Assembly: GCA_963833985.1 (NCBI GenBank)
Contig: CAWIAD010000002.1
Location: 3,296,001-3,360,000, forward strand
Source of the DNA: an uncultured Planctomycetaceae bacterium
GTDB taxonomy: Bacteria; Planctomycetota; Planctomycetia; Isosphaerales; Isosphaeraceae
Reading direction: 5' to 3'
DNA: 64,000 bases
The number at the start of each line of letters is the position of its first letter. Position 1 is the stretch's first letter. Shown piece after piece: positions 1 through 12,809 of the stretch. The position numbers and the translations under genes are program-made. The notes below the pieces were generated by a model, which saw only the letters and a list, made by a program, of their open reading frames with translations, had not been told where the DNA came from and ran no database searches.

Positions 1-543
1 GATCATCGGGCCGACCCCGTAGTTACCCCGGTAGTTACACCCATGCGAACTGGGGGCCTGTGTGCCGTCGGAGGGGCACAGATAAACGGGGACGCTCACG
101 GCAAAGGCCGTCATGTTCTGCGGGAATGGGAAGCCGGGGCCATCGTCAGGGCCTTGGTCATCCGCGAACCGCTCGAAGTCGAAGTTGATTGAGGCGAAAA
201 GAGGCTGCTGCTCCAGGAAGGGAAGGAGCCTTGTCAGGGCAGAGTAAGGCCTGCCGCCGGTGACCCACGGCCTTCCCAGCTTGGGGTCAGTGCGCGGATC
301 TCCCCAGTTCAAGGGGAAGCATCCGCTGGAGGCCTCGTAGCTGTGTAGGGCCAGACCGATTTGCTTCAGGTTGTTCTCGCACTGAGTTCGTCGAGCGGCC
401 TCTCGAGATGCTTGCACGGCGGGGACCAGCAGAGCGGCCAGCAGTCCGACAATCGAGATGACGACCACGGTCTCGAGCAGGGTGAACCCACGCCGGTTGG
501 CCCGGGCGGCCGTTGCTCCAGGTACTTCCTGCGGCGATGTCAT
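1..543 (-). CDS. DUF1559 family prepilin-type N-methylation protein (cassette 1), runs off window start
   Basis: Manual translation from ATG 543 (GGAGG upstream): [69 protein letters not shown]; paralog of 8726..9784. Confidence 0.9.
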
Positions 544-567
544 GGTCGGCTACCTCCGGATCTCGCC

Positions 568-1591
568 CTATTCGATGACAATAAGTGGTACCTTGACCTT
601 CGCTTGAGCTGGATGGTCCGTGGACAAGGTAATGGTACCCCTTGTTCCGCGGAGGACCGAAGTCGCCTTGAGGTGGACCGTCCGCGTGGTACCCGCACCG
701 GGCTCTACGGGCTGGACGCGAATGCCTGCGACATCGCAACCGAACCCTGTGATGTGGAAGGCAGTTTGGTCATGGGACCGAACTGCGATGCGACACTCGT
801 TCGAGGAAGGGTCCACAACTGCGACCTTGGGCGAGGTCGTGATCGTTGCCATCACGTCCCAGCACAACCCTCGTCGGCACACGACCTCACGATCCCTTTC
901 GAGGAGAACCTCGCCCCTCCGCTCACCCGGCTGGCCGCTGGTGTCGAGCCAGACTTCGAACCGTCGCGAGTCCTCGCGAAGCGTGTCGTCGAACACGCCG
1001 GTGTCCTTGTCCCCGATCCATTTCGTCTTCACATCTGAACGCAGAACCATGCCATCCAGGTCAAGAGGAGGATCGGATACTAACCCGTAGGCATAGGCGG
1101 TGAACTCGCATCTCCGCGGCTTCGAAGACGAAAGAAGTGTCAAGGCGCCAGCCTGGGAGCGTTCCTCGATCCGGACCGGAGGGTAAACCTCGGCAAGCGT
1201 CCTCAGCATGAGTTCCTCGGTACCAGGAGAGTCGGTGACCAAGAGCGTCTCGTGGACGAGCTGGCCGAACTGCCCACTGAGGGACAGCACGACCTTGACT
1301 GACGCCTCCTGGCGATCCGCCAGCACACTTCTGCTGAGGTTCACCGATCCGCAGCACGGCTTTCGGTTCACAACGTCGAGGATGCGGACCGTTCTTCCCG
1401 TGTTGTTTACTAAATTGTAGATGTGCTCAAGCGTGCGTCCTGGCCGGCCTATCACTGTCCCGAAATCGTGTGCCCGTGAATTCTGGTCGACCAGAAACGG
1501 GGGGGGGGGACGAGAGACTAACCCCTTTGTCACAGCCGATCACCGGCACGCTCGTTGTCAGCAGAGCGACGAAGAATTGATTTCGATTCAT
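568..1591 (-). CDS. DUF1573 (Ig-like) lipoprotein, cassette 1; out of frame at the C11 tract (1499-1509)
   Basis: ATG 1591 gives MNRNQFFVALLTTSVPVIGC (lipobox); body in ORF 568..1533 has HDFG...HIYNLVNNTGRTVRILDVVNRKPCCG; C10 would join the two. Confidence 0.8.
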
Positions 1592-1734: not shown

Positions 1735-2039
1735 TGTGGGATCGCCGACCCGGCCTGGTCTACCACGTGGGCACGGGCCAGTCACGGTCGGTCGGCGAGG
1801 GTCTGGAGCACCTCATCCAGATGAGCGGCCGCCTGGTGCGGACCTGCATCGACCCCAGCCGGCATCATCGCAAGAGCCCCGTGGACTCCCGCGCCGACAT
1901 CAAACGCATCGCCACCCACACCGGCTGGACGCCCGCGATCCCGTTCGAACAGAGCCTGGCGGATCTGTGGGAGGAGCTTGCTCGCGATGGGTTCAGGGCC
2001 GATCCCGCGGCCGCGTCATTCCTGCCACTCACGGCGTGA
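1735..2039 (+). pseudogene. 3' fragment of an NAD-dependent sugar epimerase/dehydratase (Gmd/Rmd-like)
   Basis: PGLVYHVGTGQSRSVGEGLEHLI...ADIKRIATHTGWTPAIPFEQSLADLW is a typical extended-SDR C-terminus; no Rossmann N-terminus upstream. Confidence 0.75.
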
Positions 2040-2047
2040 AGGTCTGA

Positions 2048-3694
2048 TCACTGCCGTTCTTGATGCGTGACGATGGGAACATAGCCGTATTCCAGCCCCT
2101 TTGGCGGCGTCACGATGAGCGCGGGGTCAAGTGTCACGAGAGTGCCGCGGCTGGGCGGGGGCATGTAATCGCGGTCGATCGGCCAGCTTGCGTGGATCTT
2201 CTCCGCCAGAGCTTGCAACGCGGCCTTCCGGGCGTCGCTCCAGGCGTACTGCTGGAACGAGGGCTGGTCGACGAAGCGGTACCACGCGTACGTCACCACC
2301 GAACCGTCGCCGAGCCGCGCCTGGAATGGGCCTGTCCTGGGGCCTGGCCGGCTCCAGGCGCCGGCTGCCGGCGAGGTGTAAGGCGCACCTGGCCTGGCAC
2401 CCGGGAACTGGCGGGCCTGGAGCAGAGTCTCCGCCGGCACCTTCGCCGCGGGCACGGCCACGCGGCGCTGGCCGATCTGCCGGAAGTACTCCGGGAAAAC
2501 GCCCCTCGGGCTGAGATCGCTCGGGAACCATTGCAGGCCCCACACGTTGCCCTCGAAGACCCGGGTGTCGAAGACCTTCTCGACATCCGCCAGCGCCTTG
2601 CCATCCTGGTCGTAGCGCGTCGTGTGCGTGGTCAGTGAGGACTTCCATGCGCCCTTCGCGTCGAATCGGCCCGATGCGGGCGGACCGCCGTCGCGCCATG
2701 CCCTGAACGAGTCGAAGAGCGCGGCCCTGGAGTAATAGGTCACGTCCTGGACGAGATACGTGCGCCCCTGGCCATCGACCGGGAAATGCAGCCGGGGGAT
2801 CTTCGAGTACACCTCGCCGCGTTCATCGGTGCTGTCGAACCTCGGCACCGTGTTGATCTCCATGGCGCCTCCGCCCATGATGCCCGGCCGCGCATCGAGC
2901 CCGCGTCCATGGAGAAAGGGATCGTGGAAGAGCTTGCCGATCTTGCTCCAGGTCTCGGGAATGTAATAGGCGATCGGCCCCTTGAAATTGGCCGTGCTCA
3001 GGAAGCAGGTCCAGCTCTGGTCGCCCGTGGGCGGATCGCCCGTCGTGGCAGCGGTGAACGGCAAGGCCATCCAGGTATAGCCCAGAAACTCGCCATCGGG
3101 ATGGCCCTGAAACGGCAGGGCGTCCGGCGGAATCAGCAGCCGGTTGCTGAGCTGCGCGATTCCCAGCCGCTGATCGGGCAGCGCCTCGTTGCTGTAGAAG
3201 AACGACCACCCGGGCGAGCCGATCTCGTAGTCGTAGCACTGCGGGGTCGCGTTCATGCTGAACTTGGGCGGGCCGTAACGGAAATGGTTGCCCGCCCAGT
3301 AGCCCAGCCCGCCTTCCACCGTCTGAAACACGCTATCCCAGGTCGGCCCCCGTTCCTTCCAGGTCCGCGCCAGCGTGCCCACCGGAGCGAGCGGGTGGTC
3401 CTTGTTGTCCGAGTTGTCGGGCGTGATCCAGGCGCTGGCCAGGCCGATCTGGAAATCGGCGATCGGCTCCTCGATGAGCGGCCAGACCGCCGAGTAAAAA
3501 CCCATCCCCGCACTGAACTCCGATTGCGCCGGCGGACGCGACGCCGTGAATCCGATGTATCCATGAAGCCCGTTCGAGTGCAGGCGCACCGTCCCGCTCG
3601 GCGCCTCAGCAGCCTGCCTGGAATCCTGCGCCAGGCACGTTGAAGCTAGCAGCGCTGTGATCACGAGAAAGTGGCCCGGTCGGAGTTCCGTCAT
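2048..3694 (-). CDS. Secreted hypothetical protein (about 548 aa)
   Basis: Long ORF; signal-peptide-like start MTELRPGHFLVITALLASTCLAQD; aromatic-rich globular body; no family recognised. Confidence 0.75.
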   Translation of the reverse strand: MTELRPGHFLVITALLASTCLAQDSRQAAEAPSGTVRLHSNGLHGYIGFTASRPPAQSEFSAGMGFYSAVWPLIEEPIADFQIGLASAWITPDNSDNKDHPLAPVGTLARTWKERGPTWDSVFQTVEGGLGYWAGNHFRYGPPKFSMNATPQCYDYEIGSPGWSFFYSNEALPDQRLGIAQLSNRLLIPPDALPFQGHPDGEFLGYTWMALPFTAATTGDPPTGDQSWTCFLSTANFKGPIAYYIPETWSKIGKLFHDPFLHGRGLDARPGIMGGGAMEINTVPRFDSTDERGEVYSKIPRLHFPVDGQGRTYLVQDVTYYSRAALFDSFRAWRDGGPPASGRFDAKGAWKSSLTTHTTRYDQDGKALADVEKVFDTRVFEGNVWGLQWFPSDLSPRGVFPEYFRQIGQRRVAVPAAKVPAETLLQARQFPGARPGAPYTSPAAGAWSRPGPRTGPFQARLGDGSVVTYAWYRFVDQPSFQQYAWSDARKAALQALAEKIHASWPIDRDYMPPPSRGTLVTLDPALIVTPPKGLEYGYVPIVTHQERQ

Positions 3695-4080
3695 GATTCG
3701 TCTTGCTTGTGAGAGTATGGACAGCCCGCGATGGGCCGATGGCTGCAACGCCCCGGCCCGAGGTCGCGATATGAGCCTCCGGCAGGAACGCCTTCGCCGG
3801 CTGCCCTGTCGCTCGCGCATGATTCCAGCAGGTCCCCGAGGCAGGATCAAGCCACCGGTGCGCGGAACCAGACCAGGCGCGGGTGCCGCACCGGGGAACG
3901 TCCAGAAGGCCAGGATGCTCGGGGAGCGAGCACTTTTGATCGTCATGGGCCAGGAGGTTGTTCGCGGACGGCCCTTGCGGGGTGGTCACCGACCCGATAG
4001 GAAAGGGGCAGAGCAAGAGGCTCCGATGACGAGCCGTCGCGAGCGATTCCTCCCCTGACTTCGTGAAACAGGAAGCCTCC

Positions 4081-5997: not shown

Positions 5998-6053
5998 CGT
6001 GACAAGGCCCTGCCAGCGTCGCTCGCTTCGGGGAATCCGCTCATCGGTTGCCA

Positions 6054-6392
6054 TTGACGGCCTAACCTGACCTCTTATCATCCGGTGCGCGGCCTGCGAT
6101 TGCGCCGCGCGTGGAGTGATCTCTAGGGGATTGTCCCGGGACGCCGTGGGGCGGGTGCAACCTGCCGCATTCAAGCTCTGGCCACAAAGTGGGTTGTGCT
6201 GCGTCTTACCCACACTGCAAGAGGCCGGTTATAAGCAATCCTGGAACGATCTCTCCATTCCATCAAGCTTATCGTTCTGGCCCAGGGTCAAGGAGGATCG
6301 GGATGGCCGGACGGCGATTCCTGGTTGCGGCCGTGGTGCTGTCGGCACCCCTGCATGCCCTCTCGATTTCTCGTTCGCTCTTGCCGGCCTAA
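6054..6392 (+). pseudogene. Diverged duplicate of the promoter, RBS and first 29 codons of the GT-C gene at 11200
   Basis: TTGACG-N16-TATCAT (6054-6081) versus TTGACG-N16-TATAAT (11082-11109); 6303-6392 encodes MAGRRFLVAAVVLSAPLHALSISRSLLPA*, 24/29 identical to the 11200 N-terminus. Confidence 0.85.
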
Positions 6393-6439
6393 GGTAAAAA
6401 GAGGCTTCAGAGAGGGGGCCTAACGACGGACCCGAAGGA

Positions 6440-6982
6440 TTACCGAGGCGCAAGTAGGACCGCCCCGAGGGTCGCCATAAGAGTCACCGTGGCGATTCGC
6501 TTTAGCGACCCGGAGGCGGGGACGAGAGCGCGGCCCGTCCAGACAGGCGATCTAGAGAGTTGCTCAAAATCGATGATCCGCGGAGCATACGGAGGATCGA
6601 GCATCTGCACCATCGTCTCGGTCGTGCCAACGGGACGAAGGACCGCGAAATGACCCCGGCGATTGTCCGCGAGGTGAATGATTGCGGGACGCCCACGGAG
6701 CGCCCTGCACGTTTCAAGGCGGATCCCGTCGAGCCGATCGCCAAGACGGCGCGCAGTCTCAGCAAGCTCAGACATGGAGTAGCCTGAGGAGCCACGGGCT
6801 GGTAGGGCCGCGTCAAGTTGATCGAGCGACACCGACCGGCCCTGGAGTTGAAGGAGCAAAAAAAGCGCCGGCGACCCGCAGTCGAGCACGTGCGTGTTGT
6901 CAGCCTGCTCAGCATGCGTCTGGCCGGCCCAGCAAACACCGAGGGCAAGGATGATGCAGGCGATCAGGTGACGAGCTGGCAT
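6440..6982 (-). CDS. Stand-alone exported C39-family cysteine peptidase with C-terminal hydrophobic anchor
   Basis: Signal peptide MPARHLIACIILALGVCWAGQTHA; DCG (catalytic Cys), GYSMSEL, GHFAVL (His), MLDPP (Asp), WTGRAL. Confidence 0.85.
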   Translation of the reverse strand: MPARHLIACIILALGVCWAGQTHAEQADNTHVLDCGSPALFLLLQLQGRSVSLDQLDAALPARGSSGYSMSELAETARRLGDRLDGIRLETCRALRGRPAIIHLADNRRGHFAVLRPVGTTETMVQMLDPPYAPRIIDFEQLSRSPVWTGRALVPASGSLKRIATVTLMATLGAVLLAPR

Positions 6983-7038
6983 GAGGCACCGCTTGAAAGG
7001 GAAAGCGAAATGGACGTGTCGTTCGTCCGTGTGTTTCC

Positions 7039-8148
7039 CTAGCGCCCGTAGCGTTGACGCCAGAGAAGCAGAAGAGACGCCAGCACGATCGCGCCGAAGC
7101 CCCAGGGAAGCCACGCGATCCAGCTCTGGCCCGGGGCGGGAGGGGCAGCGGTAAGCTCCGAAACCTGCTGCTGGGCTTCGGCGAGATGTTGCTTCAGCAT
7201 GGCCTCGGCTTCGGCCTTGCTCGGTTTGAGATCGATCTTCTGCTGTCCAAACGCGTAAGCGATCTGTCGCAGATGGTCGGAGATCGGCGTGCCGGGCTTG
7301 TGCTTCATGGTGAATGTCTCGCGGCCCGGATGCCGGTTGAACTGAATGGCGCCGTCCGCTATGTAGGTCGAGATCAGTACCGTCGGCGTTTTCGAGATTG
7401 GATGGGCCATGTCGGTCCCGTCGGCATAGCCGGCTTTTTCGCCTGAAACGGGCATCCAGACGGTCTTGCCTCCAACGTGAAACGACTTCAGCTCGACGTC
7501 GAGCCGAAACGCCAGCGCGCCGCCGACGCCGTAGCCTTCCTGACGCACGACCTGACCGCTCCTGCGCAAGTCGATCCAATAGCGGAAGATCGGGATGTCT
7601 GGCCTACCACGGAGCGACTGCGACAGGACCTTCAGCTTACGCCCATCCACGGTCTCCTCGGAGACAACGGCGTTATGACCGTCGGGATCGACATCTCTTC
7701 GGAGCTTATCAAGCAAGAAGATCGTTCCGTAGCCGTCCGTGTTCCAGGAGTTGGCGTGGTCCGGCTTCTCGATCACCGAATAGCCGATCGGGGCATCGTT
7801 GTTGCGAAAATACCGCTCGGCCTGGTTCTCGTGCGGCCGAACCACGAGAGTCTCGCGTTCGATCGTCGCGTTGCTGGCGAGCATGTGATAGCACTCGACG
7901 CGGGTATCGCCTCCGCGACTCCAAACAAACCTCCCGCTGAACGACTGGTAGAGACCGTCCGGCCCGAGCTTCTGAACCTTGTCAACGGACCCTTTGTGGC
8001 GTACGCTTCCCTCGAACTCGCAGGTGAAATCTTCGATCGGCTGCTGAAGTGACTCCATCATGTCCAACAGAAGCCGCGGGTCTGTGTCCGGGGTGCCATT
8101 GCCCATCCCCGCGCAGGTGAGGAACAGGCACAGGGAAAGAGCCATCAT
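7039..8148 (-). CDS. Exported protein with C-terminal membrane anchor (possibly LolA-like fold)
   Basis: N-terminal hydrophobic signal; C-terminal WIAWLPWGFGAIVLASLLLLWRQRYGR (TM plus basic tail); beta-rich core (FRYWIDLRRSGQVVRQE). Fold is inference. Confidence 0.7.
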   Translation of the reverse strand: MMALSLCLFLTCAGMGNGTPDTDPRLLLDMMESLQQPIEDFTCEFEGSVRHKGSVDKVQKLGPDGLYQSFSGRFVWSRGGDTRVECYHMLASNATIERETLVVRPHENQAERYFRNNDAPIGYSVIEKPDHANSWNTDGYGTIFLLDKLRRDVDPDGHNAVVSEETVDGRKLKVLSQSLRGRPDIPIFRYWIDLRRSGQVVRQEGYGVGGALAFRLDVELKSFHVGGKTVWMPVSGEKAGYADGTDMAHPISKTPTVLISTYIADGAIQFNRHPGRETFTMKHKPGTPISDHLRQIAYAFGQQKIDLKPSKAEAEAMLKQHLAEAQQQVSELTAAPPAPGQSWIAWLPWGFGAIVLASLLLLWRQRYGR

Positions 8149-8217
8149 GGGAAAGCTCCACCGGGTTCGGGACGACGAACCCGGAATATGAATTGTCACC
8201 CTCTTGTGCGATACGCG

Positions 8218-8640
8218 TCACGGCTGGACAGTCGGTGAACTTGGCGGAGGAACACACGCCTTGTTCATATTAACCAGTTGATCGCAGTAAAGCTGGTTGT
8301 TCGCGTTGTTGTTACAGAGCCCGATCCAGTTCTGCCCGCATTGACCTACACCCACGCCCTTGTTGTACCCAGCACCCGCACCGATGACGACCGTGTAACC
8401 GTAGACCGCGCACGTTGCGCAGCCTTGCCCCAACTTCTGGCACGCCGGGATTCCCGACAGCTGAATGCACGTCAGTGAATTCAGTGCATTGCCCTGGTTG
8501 TTTCCACGGGAAGCATCGAGGTCCAACGGGCTGAGAGACGTGTCTCCCGCCCCTGTCGCGAAGATTGTCGCGGATCCAGCCAGAAGCGCTACGGCCAAGA
8601 CTCCGGAAGACCATGTCCGACAAACCGGTAAGAGCCTCAT
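8218..8640 (-). CDS. Small secreted Cys/Gly/Asn-rich peptide (140 aa), candidate C39 substrate
   Basis: AAAGGGAGG RBS before ATG 8640; signal peptide, then LSPLDLDASRG, then core with 8 Cys. Confidence 0.8.
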   Translation of the reverse strand: MRLLPVCRTWSSGVLAVALLAGSATIFATGAGDTSLSPLDLDASRGNNQGNALNSLTCIQLSGIPACQKLGQGCATCAVYGYTVVIGAGAGYNKGVGVGQCGQNWIGLCNNNANNQLYCDQLVNMNKACVPPPSSPTVQP

Positions 8641-8725
8641 TCGAGCCTCCCTTTCACGATGACGAGACACACAGCACACAGGAACCCCACCGCGCCGTCT
8701 GTAGCGAAAGGCATGCGACCGGCCA

Positions 8726-9784
8726 TTACTCCACCAGCTCACCGCCGTTCCTGGTGCCCAGCGCCCTCCAAACGGCTCGTACTGTGGTCCCGCTGACAAA
8801 CCGCACGGAGCCATCGGCCATGAGACAGTTCACGCCGCCGGGATGATGGCTTCTTGCGGTGGAAACCCCATCCCAGGTCGCGTTACCGAGCAGTGCATCG
8901 GGGATCTTGCCATTGGGCTCCTGTGCGTGGTTGTACGCTGCGCACTCGAAATCGCCATAAAACCAGGTGAAGCCGCTCATCCGGTAGGTCGGAAAATTCT
9001 GGATCGCGGCTAACTGGCAGCAGGCCAAAGCGTAGTCCGCATCCCGGTCGGCGCAGTATTTCTCGACCTGGATGAATCCGTAGTCGCGGTCGAGGGCAAG
9101 ACCGTAATCGACGCCCGTGCCCACTGGGCGCTCACTGTAGGCGGCGGTGTGGGAAAGGCCATCCGGGAATGATTGCGGACCAAACACGACCCCTCCCGAG
9201 TAGAACCCGTTGCCGCTGTCATAGGTCTGCTGGTTTGTCGCGACACTCGGCCCCACGCCGAAATTCCCCCGGTAGTTGCAGCCGTGGGCGCTGAGGGGGC
9301 TGAGGCCGTCGCTCGGGCAGAGATAGGTCGAAACCTGGACGGCGAACGCCGTCACGTTCTGCGGGAACGGAAAACTGGGGCCGTCCTCGGGCATATTGGG
9401 ATCCGCGAAGGTCTCCATCTCGAAGTTGATCGAGGCGTAGAGCGGCTGTTGCTCGAGCTGCGGGAGAATCCTGGTGAGCGCCGAGTAGGGCCGCCCTCCG
9501 GTGTAGAATGGATGTCTAAGCACTGGATCCTCGCGAGGAGTTCCCCAGTTCAGGGGGAAGCAACGGTTCGACTCTTCATAGGCGTGCAGCGCCAGGCCGA
9601 TCTGCTTCAGATTATTCTCGCACTGGGCACGGCGGGCTGCCTCACGCGACGACTGCACGGCGGGAAGCAGCAGGGCGACGAGCAGGCCGATGACCGAGAC
9701 GACGACCATCGTTTCGATGAGTGTCATACCGGACGCGTGGGCATGCGCTGAAGGCAAACGAAGAACCCTCGAAGGCGGCTTCAT
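8726..9784 (-). CDS. DUF1559 prepilin-type N-methylation / H-X9-DG-CTERM protein (cassette 2)
   Basis: [49 protein letters not shown] and ARSHHPGGVNCLMADGSVRFV. Confidence 0.95.
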   Translation of the reverse strand: MKPPSRVLRLPSAHAHASGMTLIETMVVVSVIGLLVALLLPAVQSSREAARRAQCENNLKQIGLALHAYEESNRCFPLNWGTPREDPVLRHPFYTGGRPYSALTRILPQLEQQPLYASINFEMETFADPNMPEDGPSFPFPQNVTAFAVQVSTYLCPSDGLSPLSAHGCNYRGNFGVGPSVATNQQTYDSGNGFYSGGVVFGPQSFPDGLSHTAAYSERPVGTGVDYGLALDRDYGFIQVEKYCADRDADYALACCQLAAIQNFPTYRMSGFTWFYGDFECAAYNHAQEPNGKIPDALLGNATWDGVSTARSHHPGGVNCLMADGSVRFVSGTTVRAVWRALGTRNGGELVE

Positions 9785-10826
9785 GGGGGGCTGTCTCCCG
9801 ATCCAAGTAGAACGACCGGCACCCGGATTTTCGACTGCACTGGATGGTCGGTTTCGAGGGTGAGCGTTCCCTTTGCCTCCCGGGAGTGCGGCCGGGACTC
9901 GATGCGGACGCTTCGCGCGAGACCCGCGCCGGGCTCGAAAGGGCGCGCTCTCACGCCGGGAACGTCACAGCTGGCATTGACGACGCGAAAGGCGGTATGG
10001 TCGTGCGATCTCACCTCGATCCGGCATTCCCCACCGGCAGGATCGACGACGGCGACGCTTGGCGAGGTCGTGATTCGTGCCAGGACCTCCCAGAACAGTT
10101 CATGTCGGAGCGCAACCTCACCACCTCGCAGTAAACAGACTTCGCCCCGCCTGGCTCCGGGCTCACCCGCGGCGTCCAGCCAAACGAAGAAGGACCGTGA
10201 ATCCTCCCGCAGTTCCCCGTCCGTAGACTCCGATGACTTGGGACCGCACCATTCCCCTTTCAGCGTGGAACGCAGTTCCAGGGAGTTAAGATCAAGCGGC
10301 GCATCAAGAGCCGTACCGTAGGCGAAGGCGGTGAACAGGTACTTCCTGGGGCTGGTTGAAGAGAGCAGTGGCGCCCTCTCACCGTCCGCAGGCTCCTCGA
10401 TTCGCAACGGCGGGTACACCTCGGCCTGGCTGACAAGACGTAGCTCCTCCGGTGCTGGTGGGTCGGTTTGAACGACCGCCTCATGGGTCACCCGGCCGAA
10501 CGGCACATGAGGACGCAGTGTCACCCTGACCTCGGCCGATCCGTTTGGGGCGAGCGCGTTGGCGCTAACACTTACCGACCCGCAGCACGGTTTCAAGTTG
10601 ACGACTTCCACAATTCGCACCGTCCGGGAGGAATGGTTTTCCAGCCGGTAAATGTGCTCCCGCGTCGTCCCAGCCTGGCCAATCAGTTTGCCGAAGTTGT
10701 AAGTGCGCGAAACCTGATTGATAAGCTGCTGCATGGGGGGGGGGCGTAACGCGGAGTGGCTCGCCAGCATCCCATGACTGGCACGAGAGACGTGAAAAAC
10801 AATGCCGTGACATGACGTGGCCGCAT
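9781..10826 (-). CDS. DUF1573 lipoprotein, cassette 2; out of frame at the C10 tract (10735-10744)
   Basis: ATG 10826 gives MRPRHVTALFFTSLVPVMGC (lipobox); body YNFG...HIYRLENHSSRTVRIVEVVNLKPCCG; C11 or C8 restores frame; paralog of 568..1591. Confidence 0.8.
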
Positions 10827-10880
10827 GGCACTGATACCTTCTGGACGCATCATCGGCCCGACGCAGCTTCTGAACGTCAG

Positions 10881-10909
10881 AATATCAACCCGTCCGATCA
10901 TTGAGTCAA
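10881..10909 (-). promoter_or_regulatory. sigma70-type promoter of cassette 2
   Basis: TTGACT-N17-GATATT on the minus strand, with an A-rich upstream tract. Confidence 0.5.
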
Positions 10910-11081
10910 GTAGATTTTTTTCTTTTTCTTGTGTCAGGCGCATGCCCATCCACCGAATGGCAGGCTTGACCGTTCGCCCCAGTGGCAGATCCTCAGGCCC
11001 GCTCCGGAGTTCGCTGCCCGACAACAGGTTTTGGTACCTTGATTGACTCGTCGATCTGTGCCATCAGCCGGCCGCTTGCCA

Positions 11082-11109
11082 TTGACGCCCACCGGGCCCC
11101 TTCTATAAT
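11082..11109 (+). promoter_or_regulatory. Near-consensus sigma70 promoter of the envelope operon
   Basis: TTGACG-N16-TATAAT about 90 nt before ATG 11200. Confidence 0.7.
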
Positions 11110-11199
11110 CCGGCTCGCGGGCAGGGATTGCGCCGCGGGTTCGGTGCTTGATTCTGTCGAGCTCGGCGTTCTGGCCCAGGGTCATCAAGGAGGATCGGC

Positions 11200-12809
11200 A
11201 TGGCCGGGCGGCGTTTCCTGGTTGCGGCGGTCGTCCTTTCGGCGGTCCTGCATGGCCTGTCGATTGCCCGGTCGCGCGTCCCGGCACAGGACGGGCTCAA
11301 GTTCATTGCAGTCGCCCGCCAGTTCCAGACGGATTCCTGGCCCGACGTCGTGCGCGACACCGACCAGCACCCGCTCTACCCGGCGCTTGTGGCTGCGGTC
11401 GAACCGGCGGTGGCCTTCTTCACCGGGCCCGGTCCGGACGCCTGGCGGCTGGCCGCGCAGATTGTCGCGGCCGTTGCTTCGGTGCTCATCCTCCTACCGC
11501 TTTTTGGCCTGGCGCGCGCGCTCTTCGACGGCTGGATCGCCGGCATGGCCGTGATGATCTACGCCCTCTTGCCGGTTCCCGGGGAGATCGGGCATGACAC
11601 GCTGAGCGACAGCCTGGGGCTGCTCGCGCTGGTCCTTTGCCTGCGTTACGGCGCCTTGGCGGTGCGGACCGGCGGCTGGCAATACGCCCTGGCAGCCGGG
11701 CTTGCCGGCGGCGTCGGCTACCTGGCGCGGCCGGAGGTCATCCTGGCGCCGCTGGCGCTGGGGCTGACGTGGGTGATCGTCAAGGTCCGTGCCTGGGACG
11801 TGCGCTCGCTCGTGACCGCGCCGGCCCTCCCCGTACTGTGCGTCTCCGCAATGGTGTTCGTGGGCGGATATGCCCTGGTGAAGGGGCAGGTGACGGAGAA
11901 GCTGGCCCTGCGACACGGCGCGGCGCTCGGCGCGCAGCAGCTCCTGCTCCGGCCGGTCCCGCAGCTCTTGCCGAAGGGTCTGGACGACCGGCGCTGGGAC
12001 TTCTCGCCGAAGGAGGACGCGGAGCGAACCCAGGTGCGGCATACCTCGCGGGCCCTGCACTGGATGCTCTCGGAGTGGTGGGATGCGCTCTGCTGGGGCT
12101 TCGCCGCGATGGCGGTCTGGGGGCTGGCACGGCAGCGGTTCATTCTCGGGCTTTGCCGCGCGGGCGACCCGGGCCATGCAGGACAGACCGAGCGCCTGGT
12201 GCTGGCCACATTCGCGGTTGTGTTCGTGCTGGCCCTGTTGCGGCACACCGCGGCGCTGGGGTATCTCTCGGGTCGGCACACGCTGCCGCTGGTCTTGATC
12301 TCGGTTCCCTGGGCGGCCGCGGGCACATTCGTGTGCCTGCGCGGGCTGGGGGTGAAGCTTCCCTGGAGCCGGCGCACGGCGTGGGCGTCGTGCATGGCGG
12401 CCTCCGCGGTCGTCATGCTGGTCATGGTGGTTTACCAGCTTCGTCCCGCTCATCCCACGCGCATGGGCCACTGGGCGGCGGGCCGCTGGCTGGCCCAGCA
12501 TGCGGGGCCGTCGGAGCTGGTGCTCGATACCCGGGGCTGGGCGCGTTTCGTTTCGGCGCGCCGGGCTACGATTACTGGCACGTCCGCCAGGCGTTGACCG
12601 ATTCTCACCTGGCTTACGTGGTCGTGGGCCGTGAGGAGCTGGAGGCGGATACCCCCCGGGCACGCACGCTGGGAGCGCTGCTGGCCTACGCGGCGACACC
12701 CGTCCAGGACTTCTCCGTGATGGTGCGGCACCATGACGTCGGGGCCAGGATCTACCGCTTCCACAAGCCTGCATCCTGGGAGGAGCTAACGCCAATACCT
12801 ATGAAATAG
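11200..12809 (+). CDS. GT-C fold membrane glycosyltransferase (ArnT/PMT-like, GT39); frameshift near 12557
   Basis: QDGLKF, HPLYPAL, LSDSL, YLARPE motifs and many TM helices; C-terminus continues as GAPGYDYWHVRQ in ORF 11637..12809. Confidence 0.8.

Follow-up and report, generated by a model that had tools for sequence, protein, structure and literature searches.

We analysed a 64,000-nucleotide stretch of DNA from an uncultured Planctomycetaceae bacterium (contig CAWIAD010000002.1, positions 3,296,001 to 3,360,000; hereafter the window), focusing on a cassette of five co-oriented genes on its minus strand. A first-pass annotation had placed five such genes at 6440..10909, and all were found there: a DUF1573 lipoprotein gene (gene 1), a DUF1559 pilin-like gene, a gene for a peptide with eight Cys residues, a gene for an exported protein with a predicted LolA-superfamily fold (gene 4) and a C39 peptidase gene. 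The lipoprotein gene is present as annotated, but it is split in the assembly. Its 5′ frame (10683..10826), with signal peptide and lipobox (VMG↓C), stops after 47 aa, and is out of frame with the Ig-like lipoprotein body that matches DUF1573 (9781..10734); a C10 homopolymer on the coding strand (10735..10744), a likely phase-variation tract, lies directly past the lipobox at the frame break. The stop of the body overlaps the start of the DUF1559 gene (ATGA; 8726..9784), which encodes a prepilin-like protein (G↓MTLIE) with an H-X9-DG motif. The 140-aa peptide precursor (8218..8640) consists of an N-terminal hydrophobic signal stretch, a leader of the double-glycine type (LSPLDLDASRGN, residues 36-47, 8500..8535) with a predicted cut after Asn47, and a 93-residue core. 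Gene 4 (7039..8148, with a GTG start at 8199 also possible) encodes 369 aa ending in a hydrophobic anchor, and the 180-aa C39 peptidase (6440..6982) has an N-terminal signal stretch, the residues C35, H111 and D129, and a hydrophobic C-terminal anchor. Signal peptides and membrane anchors were called from hydropathy alone.

In Pfam, the body of gene 1 matches DUF1573 with 26.3 bits (cut-off 26.1), the second protein matches DUF1559 with 153 bits, and the last matches Peptidase_C39 (PF03412) with 38.7 bits (cut-off 22) as its only domain. The N_methyl motif of the DUF1559 protein falls below its cut-off (18.4 of 21.2), while TIGR02532 lies above its own. Neither Pfam nor NCBIfam holds a family for the peptide or gene 4. 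The promoter-like site said to precede the genes does exist (10881..10909, minus strand; TTGACT-17-GATATT, a weak match at 9 of 12 positions), but three such sites in 6000-11300 compare with 1.3 ± 1.0 in shuffled sequence, which is not clearly above chance, and it was set aside as evidence.

The leader of the precursor was compared with those of other cassette peptides. An unguided motif search behind the signal of 46 peptides returned L/V-S-x-x-E-L/A-x-x-L/I/S/V-R-G-G/A, with 14.7 bits versus 9.9-10.6 for five shuffled sets and Gly at -2 in 75% of the peptides. In a curated set of 52, position -12 is L, V, I or M in 45 and position -4 is I, L or V in 38, while position -1 is G in 32, A in 10, S in 5, R in 2, and K, T or N in one each. 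A hydrophobic pattern at -4, -7 and -12 is described for substrates of the LahT type in the accessible part of PMC10885120. The focal leader has Leu at -12 and -7 and Gly at -2, with Ser at -4. Aligned with relatives that read SRGG↓ or SRGS↓, it takes the register ...SRGN↓N, with Gly at -2 and Asn at -1, so that cleavage is predicted after RGN, one residue past the site after SRG that had been proposed in the first-pass annotation. Its leave-one-out leader score is 6.8, a level reached by 2% of 993 control exported open reading frames. Among 27 held-out peptides reached via gene 4 (three registers set by hand), 24 have Gly at -2 unaided and 21 score at least 6.8. Position -1 is broad in this group (G 9, S 7, R 5, L 3, A 2, K 1), and the focal subfamily therefore appears to tolerate varied residues there; Gly, Ala or Ser stands at -1 in 47/52 and 18/27 of the relatives, as opposed to Asn in the focal peptide.

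The presence of the leader follows that of the peptidase. At loci gathered with a gene-4 profile, a leader score of at least 5.8 is seen in 12 of 13 cassettes that have both C39 and a detected peptide (10 of 11 after removal of two training members) and in none of four cassettes that lack C39; two further peptides from C39-less loci have no leader by eye. Leader conservation among homologous cassettes, on which the first-pass proposal depended, is thus borne out.

The C39 peptidase itself has the C39 fold with Cys-His-Asp common to the domains of LahT, PCAT1 and ComA. The catalytic Cys, His and Asp are kept in at least 90% of 59 C39 sequences, the best Protein Data Bank match of the focal protein is LahT (6mpz, E 1e-20), and by hand count a hydrophobic N-terminal stretch is present in 58 of 68 C39 rows. 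Unlike the PCAT/AMS exporters, in which C39 is fused to the membrane and ATPase domains of an ATP-binding cassette (ABC) transporter, the cassette enzyme stands alone with a signal stretch and a C-terminal anchor. Likewise, its putative substrates share with double-glycine precursors the hydrophobic -12/-7/-4 positions, the Gly at -2 and a conserved leader on a variable core, but differ in that the leader stands behind a signal peptide, rather than at the extreme N-terminus as in PCAT/AMS substrates, and in the breadth of position -1 (G, A, S, R, L, K, T, N). As first annotated, no ABC transporter is seen in the cassette, but the genome does encode an ordinary C39-ABC exporter, its fifth C39, on another contig. 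Export of the precursor by the genome's own PCAT was considered and rejected because the signal stretch stands ahead of the leader.

Even Cys numbers occur in 45/51 cores and in 25/27 of the held-out group, the pattern that disulfide pairing would give. Behind the conserved leader the cores are hypervariable, the 51 falling into 39 BLAST clusters. When the focal peptide was aligned with relatives that share its layout (35 of 40, the five with 10 Cys being left out), all eight Cys and the Gly at -2 were invariant, and a Gln near the core end was kept in at least 90%. The structural model of the peptide, with a predicted local distance difference test (pLDDT) score of 77.6, has a helical leader and a β-rich core, with no Foldseek match among solved folds at E ≤ 0.001 (best Z 2.2); sequence searches against Pfam, NCBIfam, the Protein Data Bank and the Atlas also gave no match. 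Tandem arrangements occur elsewhere, with two 10-Cys peptide genes in one cassette (L092:4622 and 5114) and tandem cassettes at L050.

Turning to the partner genes, the model of gene 4 (pLDDT 82.6) matched LolA3 in Foldseek (E 2e-11). It superposes on LolA-like chains with Z scores of 17.4, 15.7 and 15.5 and root mean square deviations of 3.0-3.3 over 208-213 residues, and its modelled fold is that of the LolA superfamily (LolA3 9tp6, DUF1329 4z48, 3bk5 and RseB/MucB), from which it differs in its low identity (11-14%) and its C-terminal membrane anchor. Gene 4 had no plasmid match.

The DUF1559 gene combines the prepilin motif, SBP_bac_10 and H-X9-DG, and is one of 103 DUF1559 hits in the genome, which also encodes three secretins and two prepilin peptidases. 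A midpoint-rooted tree was built from 72 foreign sequences, chosen as cassette members only, and from the hits of the focal genome, of which 68 were used and 35 short matches were left out. In it, a single clade with 70 members and a support of 0.99 gathers 68 of the 78 cassette sequences, including five of six from the focal genome; of its two remaining members, one proved to be part of a C39-less cassette. The dedicated pilin-like partner that had been suggested for the peptide is in line with this result.

The cassette recurs in the genome and beyond it. A PF03412 search covered 60 genomes of the Isosphaeraceae family and 60 loci around matches under about 80 bits were taken, a set that excludes high-scoring long-frame matches and some weak ones; further loci were gathered with the gene-4 profile. 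The co-occurrence of the genes that the first-pass annotation had counted on is seen in the 63 C39 loci (60 plus three from the focal genome), where DUF1559 is present in 50, DUF1573 in 43 and the gene-4 family in 39, a count that rises to 55 when a second gene-4 subfamily is included. Outside the family, a C39 alignment matched 51 of 151 genomes. Among 40 short-frame loci there, seven by eye have an exported C39 with a signal-bearing, Cys-rich peptide, and a stand-alone C39 was rejected as a phylum-wide marker of the cassette as the other 33 have no convincing peptide. The relatives found are planctomycetes, mostly Isosphaeraceae; the cassette is common in that family and scattered elsewhere in the phylum, and one cultured carrier, Tautonia sociabilis GM2012 (L153), is among the records.

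A paralogous cassette of the same gene order, not covered by the earlier annotation, adjoins the focal one. It starts at window position 1591, occupies the first 1.6 kb of the window (1..1591, minus strand, with DUF1573 and DUF1559) and extends for another 2.7 kb outside it on the left. A GG leader (LSADELTVSRGG) is found in its peptide, and a C11 run (1499-1509) divides its DUF1573 gene in the same place as in the focal gene. The two copies are 75% identical in DUF1559, 63% in C39, 58% in gene 4, 52% in DUF1573 and 40% in the peptide core. A third cassette has another gene order and a 14-Cys core behind MSEKECLGIIGG, and a fourth has DUF1559, gene 4 and C39 with no peptide. Five C39-less loci (C2:4529910, C2:4303821, C1:2247947, C2:2247757 and C1:2789647) each encode an exported peptide with 8-11 Cys, a LolA-like protein and DUF1559, with DUF1573 in four of them and a G11 run in one DUF1573 gene. 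Since a four-gene core without C39 exists, cutting is an add-on, and C39 with the leader forms an optional part of a wider cassette made up of DUF1573, DUF1559, a LolA-like protein and the peptide. These C39-less versions, the fold of gene 4 and the repeat tract of gene 1 are likewise additions to the first-pass annotation.

That repeat tract is a recurrent feature. We counted C/G runs of at least 9, or 4-7-mers repeated at least four times, in the 450 nt that precede the first conserved domain. Such a repeat is present in 30 of 74 cassettes (24 further incomplete ones lay outside the count), divided as 23/30 with DUF1573 first, 6/22 with the peptide first and one of the other 22. The background is 13 in 890 kb of the remaining loci (0.0066 per 450 nt) and 51 in the 10.2 Mb genome (0.0023). 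Previously unseen DUF1573-first cassettes have the repeat in five of eight cases, and within the focal genome three of 11 DUF1573 genes have it upstream. As automatic on/off calling was crude (14/29 genes with repeats and 7/25 without were called broken, with miscalls at L144 and L220), frame states were read by hand: runs between lipobox and domain are out of frame in ten cases and in frame in three, and pentamer repeats also occur in both in-frame and broken states among genomes. A slippage repeat at the 5′ end of a gene, with both frame states represented, is the usual signature of phase variation. Among phase-variable surface genes, pentamers lie in the signal region of Neisseria opa, and poly-C/G tracts are found in Campylobacter and Neisseria. 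The gene-1 repeat is enriched at the 5′ end in the manner of such contingency loci, from which the cassette differs in that its carriers are free-living soil or aquatic planctomycetes, its tract lies in the first gene of an operon and its two frame states are seen between genomes. A coding-strand G10 run is also seen at C2:4693339; it precedes by about 70 nt the peptide gene with which the third cassette begins, and a radical-SAM-like gene lies further upstream.

The reading we favour, with a probability of roughly one half (0.52), is a phase-variable system in which the cassette C39 would mature a disulfide peptide in the periplasm before the product is placed at the surface. The precursor would cross the inner membrane via its signal peptide and the core would oxidise to four disulfides. 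The anchored C39 would then cut after RGN on the periplasmic side, and the LolA-fold protein, the lipoprotein and the dedicated pilin-like protein would move or mount the mature peptide at the surface. Slippage in gene 1 would switch the unit, possibly by polarity through the overlapping stop and start. Given the co-occurrence of the genes, the conserved leader that tracks C39 and the dedicated DUF1559 clade, periplasmic maturation is well supported as an inference. The individual steps differ in strength. Cleavage of the peptide by its own cassette C39 appears quite probable and on/off switching by the gene-1 repeat fairly likely; we infer the export route from the predicted signal peptide, and whether the product would be displayed rather than released is evenly poised.

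A number of points weigh against this reading. Gly at -2 in all 52 curated peptides is partly circular, because in 21 of the 52 a Gly was used to fix the register by hand, and a Gly-less peptide (L039) was dropped. Leader scores exceed 8 in only 60% of that set, in which the focal leader is atypical (sole Asn at -1, 6.8 versus a median of 10.2). One C39 cassette (L220) encodes a peptide with no clear leader, three others (L205, L211 and L215) have C39 and no detected peptide, and the C39-less group is small, three of its four members coming from the focal genome. The oxyanion Gln of exporter C39 domains such as those of the PCATs is not conserved in the cassette enzymes and is Asn in the focal one. 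Any direct contact of the peptide with DUF1559, DUF1573 or gene 4 is putative, and its expression, cleavage and localisation are predictions. DUF1559 genes are often flanked by signal-peptide genes in the phylum, according to the available portion of PMC8567305. The criterion for repeats was chosen with the data already in view, and related genomes are not independent. Finally, the assembly dropped one base of a C7 run inside the C39 gene of the paralog, and so the length of the focal tract and its off state are uncertain.

The main rival, which we consider rather unlikely, accepts the same maturation and has the peptide released as an antagonistic or signalling molecule, like a bacteriocin. 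The leader would keep the peptide from acting before it has crossed the inner membrane, an immunity or carrier role would fall to the LolA-fold protein, and the DUF1559 protein would act as a pseudopilin specific to this substrate in type II export. According to the accessible text of PMC10885120, bacteriocin loci are typified by double-glycine leaders and by hypervariable cores combined with conserved machinery; the peptide-binding RseB and MucB have the fold modelled for gene 4, and the genome encodes secretins. However, versions that lack C39 and leader retain the other four genes, which indicates that activation by cutting is not essential, and GT-C and GT2 glycosyltransferase genes are present in variant cassettes. 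Judging by known phase-variable loci, a slippage tract in a lipoprotein gene also suits a surface structure more than a diffusible toxin.

A second alternative, which we hold to be improbable, concerns the switch: the repeats might simply encode low-complexity Pro/Gly linkers past the lipobox, with the frame breaks arising as homopolymer errors of long-read sequencing. The homopolymer slip elsewhere in the assembly is consistent with this, as are the 7/25 repeat-free DUF1573 genes that also lack an intact start under the crude rule, and the reads of one DNA run did not reach either tract. Sequencing errors alter the length of a run but do not give rise to runs of 10-14 at one site, however. 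Only 12 runs of at least 10 occur in the 10.2 Mb genome, of which two are at the gene-1 site and a third is just upstream of another cassette, and none of the 103 DUF1559 genes of the genome has such an upstream repeat. In other genomes, unrelated pentamers of 4-21 units lie in the same region, and the identical broken C10 state is seen in two assemblies (L133 and L160).

Least probable is that C39 acts as a leader-binding chaperone or cuts another cassette protein, or that the focal copy is decaying and no longer processed: the unique Asn at -1, the missing oxyanion Gln, the peptide-less remnant cassette in the genome, the first gene broken in the assembly and the similar question left open for FapD, whose target is unresolved in the part of PMC5557850 available, speak for it, but the catalytic triad kept in at least 90% of the C39 sequences, the broad -1 position of the focal subfamily, the four other intact focal frames and a leader that occurs in the peptide only and goes together with C39 speak against it.

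The closest described relative in arrangement is FapD of the Pseudomonas Fap amyloid system, which in the accessible part of PMC5557850 is a C39 that stands alone, carries a Sec signal, works in the periplasm and depends on its Cys. A periplasmic C39 is therefore not without precedent, contrary to the earlier suggestion. In the same source the FapD target is unclear and Fap proteins have no canonical leader. The cassette shares with that system a stand-alone C39, predicted to be periplasmic from its hydropathy-called signal stretch, in an operon of exported proteins. As described there, Fap has a β-barrel pore and Cys-poor amyloid repeats, whereas the cassette has a canonical leader and a core of the disulfide type, together with pilin-like, LolA-fold and lipoprotein partners, and no barrel gene is seen in it. 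Searches of the cassette genes against Fap families in Pfam and NCBIfam gave no match, either to the FapF barrel or to amyloid subunits. The planctomycete expansion of N_methyl plus SBP_bac_10 (DUF1559) proteins is described without a function in the accessible sections of PMC8567305, which give no such cassette; here, one clade of that family is tied to DUF1573, a predicted LolA-fold protein and a Cys-rich peptide. The available text of PMC3711429 makes no mention of DUF1573. No description of the cassette or its repeat was found in the literature covered, with most subscription papers and supplements outside its scope. On sequence grounds we regard the cassette as real, conserved and matched by no described system, and the mechanism as plausible.

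Further genes adjoin cassettes of this type. PMT_2 (GT-C) and GT2 glycosyltransferase genes lie beside variant cassettes at L034, L041, L042, L055, L058 and L070, where periplasmic glycosylation of the peptide is possible. Thirteen loci (L032:5613-6956, L038:8358-9611, L042:7469-8974 and ten more) encode an exported protein of about 430 aa that could modify the peptide; it has a QxDGSW motif, no Pfam match and a weak similarity to terpene cyclase repeats (E 0.005). Between the two cassettes of the window lies a gene for a 604-aa exported protein with no Pfam match (2048-3862, minus strand), beside two α/β hydrolase genes.

Direct repeats of the end of a neighbouring host gene bracket three of the four C39 cassettes of the genome, as if these had inserted by recombination. 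The focal pair consists of a left copy at 6045..6388 (plus strand) and a right copy at 11073..11285 (plus strand), 77-80% alike, the latter holding a promoter-like site and the 5′ end of a PMT_2 glycosyltransferase gene. The second pair (window 1749-1978 and C2:3292813-3293042) is 100% identical over 230 bp, and the third (C2 near 212700 and 215900) is 91% identical over 169 bp. As a general trait, flanking repeats were rejected, with 8/44 cassette loci against 5/22 other C39 loci and 5/150 random windows.

C39 domains also occur in other settings. In many of the family genomes (rows G003, G004, G007 and others) C39 starts frames of about 1800-2000 aa, and the long C39 frame examined in the focal genome (1861 aa) begins as a C39-ABC exporter. 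A signal-less C39 lies beside a VgrG-like gene at L045, L081 and L082, with none of the cassette partners present. Other stand-alone C39 types of the phylum (L097-L124), which are lipoproteins or follow membrane helices, lack the C-terminal anchor and show no peptide partner, and at several loci C39 is fused to DUF1573.

In its fullest form, the favoured reading describes an undescribed phase-variable display, in which a polymorphic disulfide peptide matured by a relocated bacteriocin protease is mounted with a DUF1559 pseudopilin, a LolA-fold carrier and a lipoprotein; we offer this version tentatively, with the odds somewhat against it. If true, each cell would gain an identity tag, an adhesin tip or a contact weapon that can be switched, and one clade of the large DUF1559 family of the phylum would have a cargo-specific role. 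It would also be a case of a double-glycine leader processed once Sec export has taken place, and with its substrate named, a point not yet settled for FapD. The cassette gives a testable role to one DUF1559 clade and to DUF1573, two families to which no function has been assigned, and is a source of dozens of unrelated disulfide-rich peptide scaffolds that match no fold. Its C39 enzymes, given the broad -1 position, may serve as leader-removal tools, and the repeat tract suggests that phase variation occurs in free-living planctomycetes.

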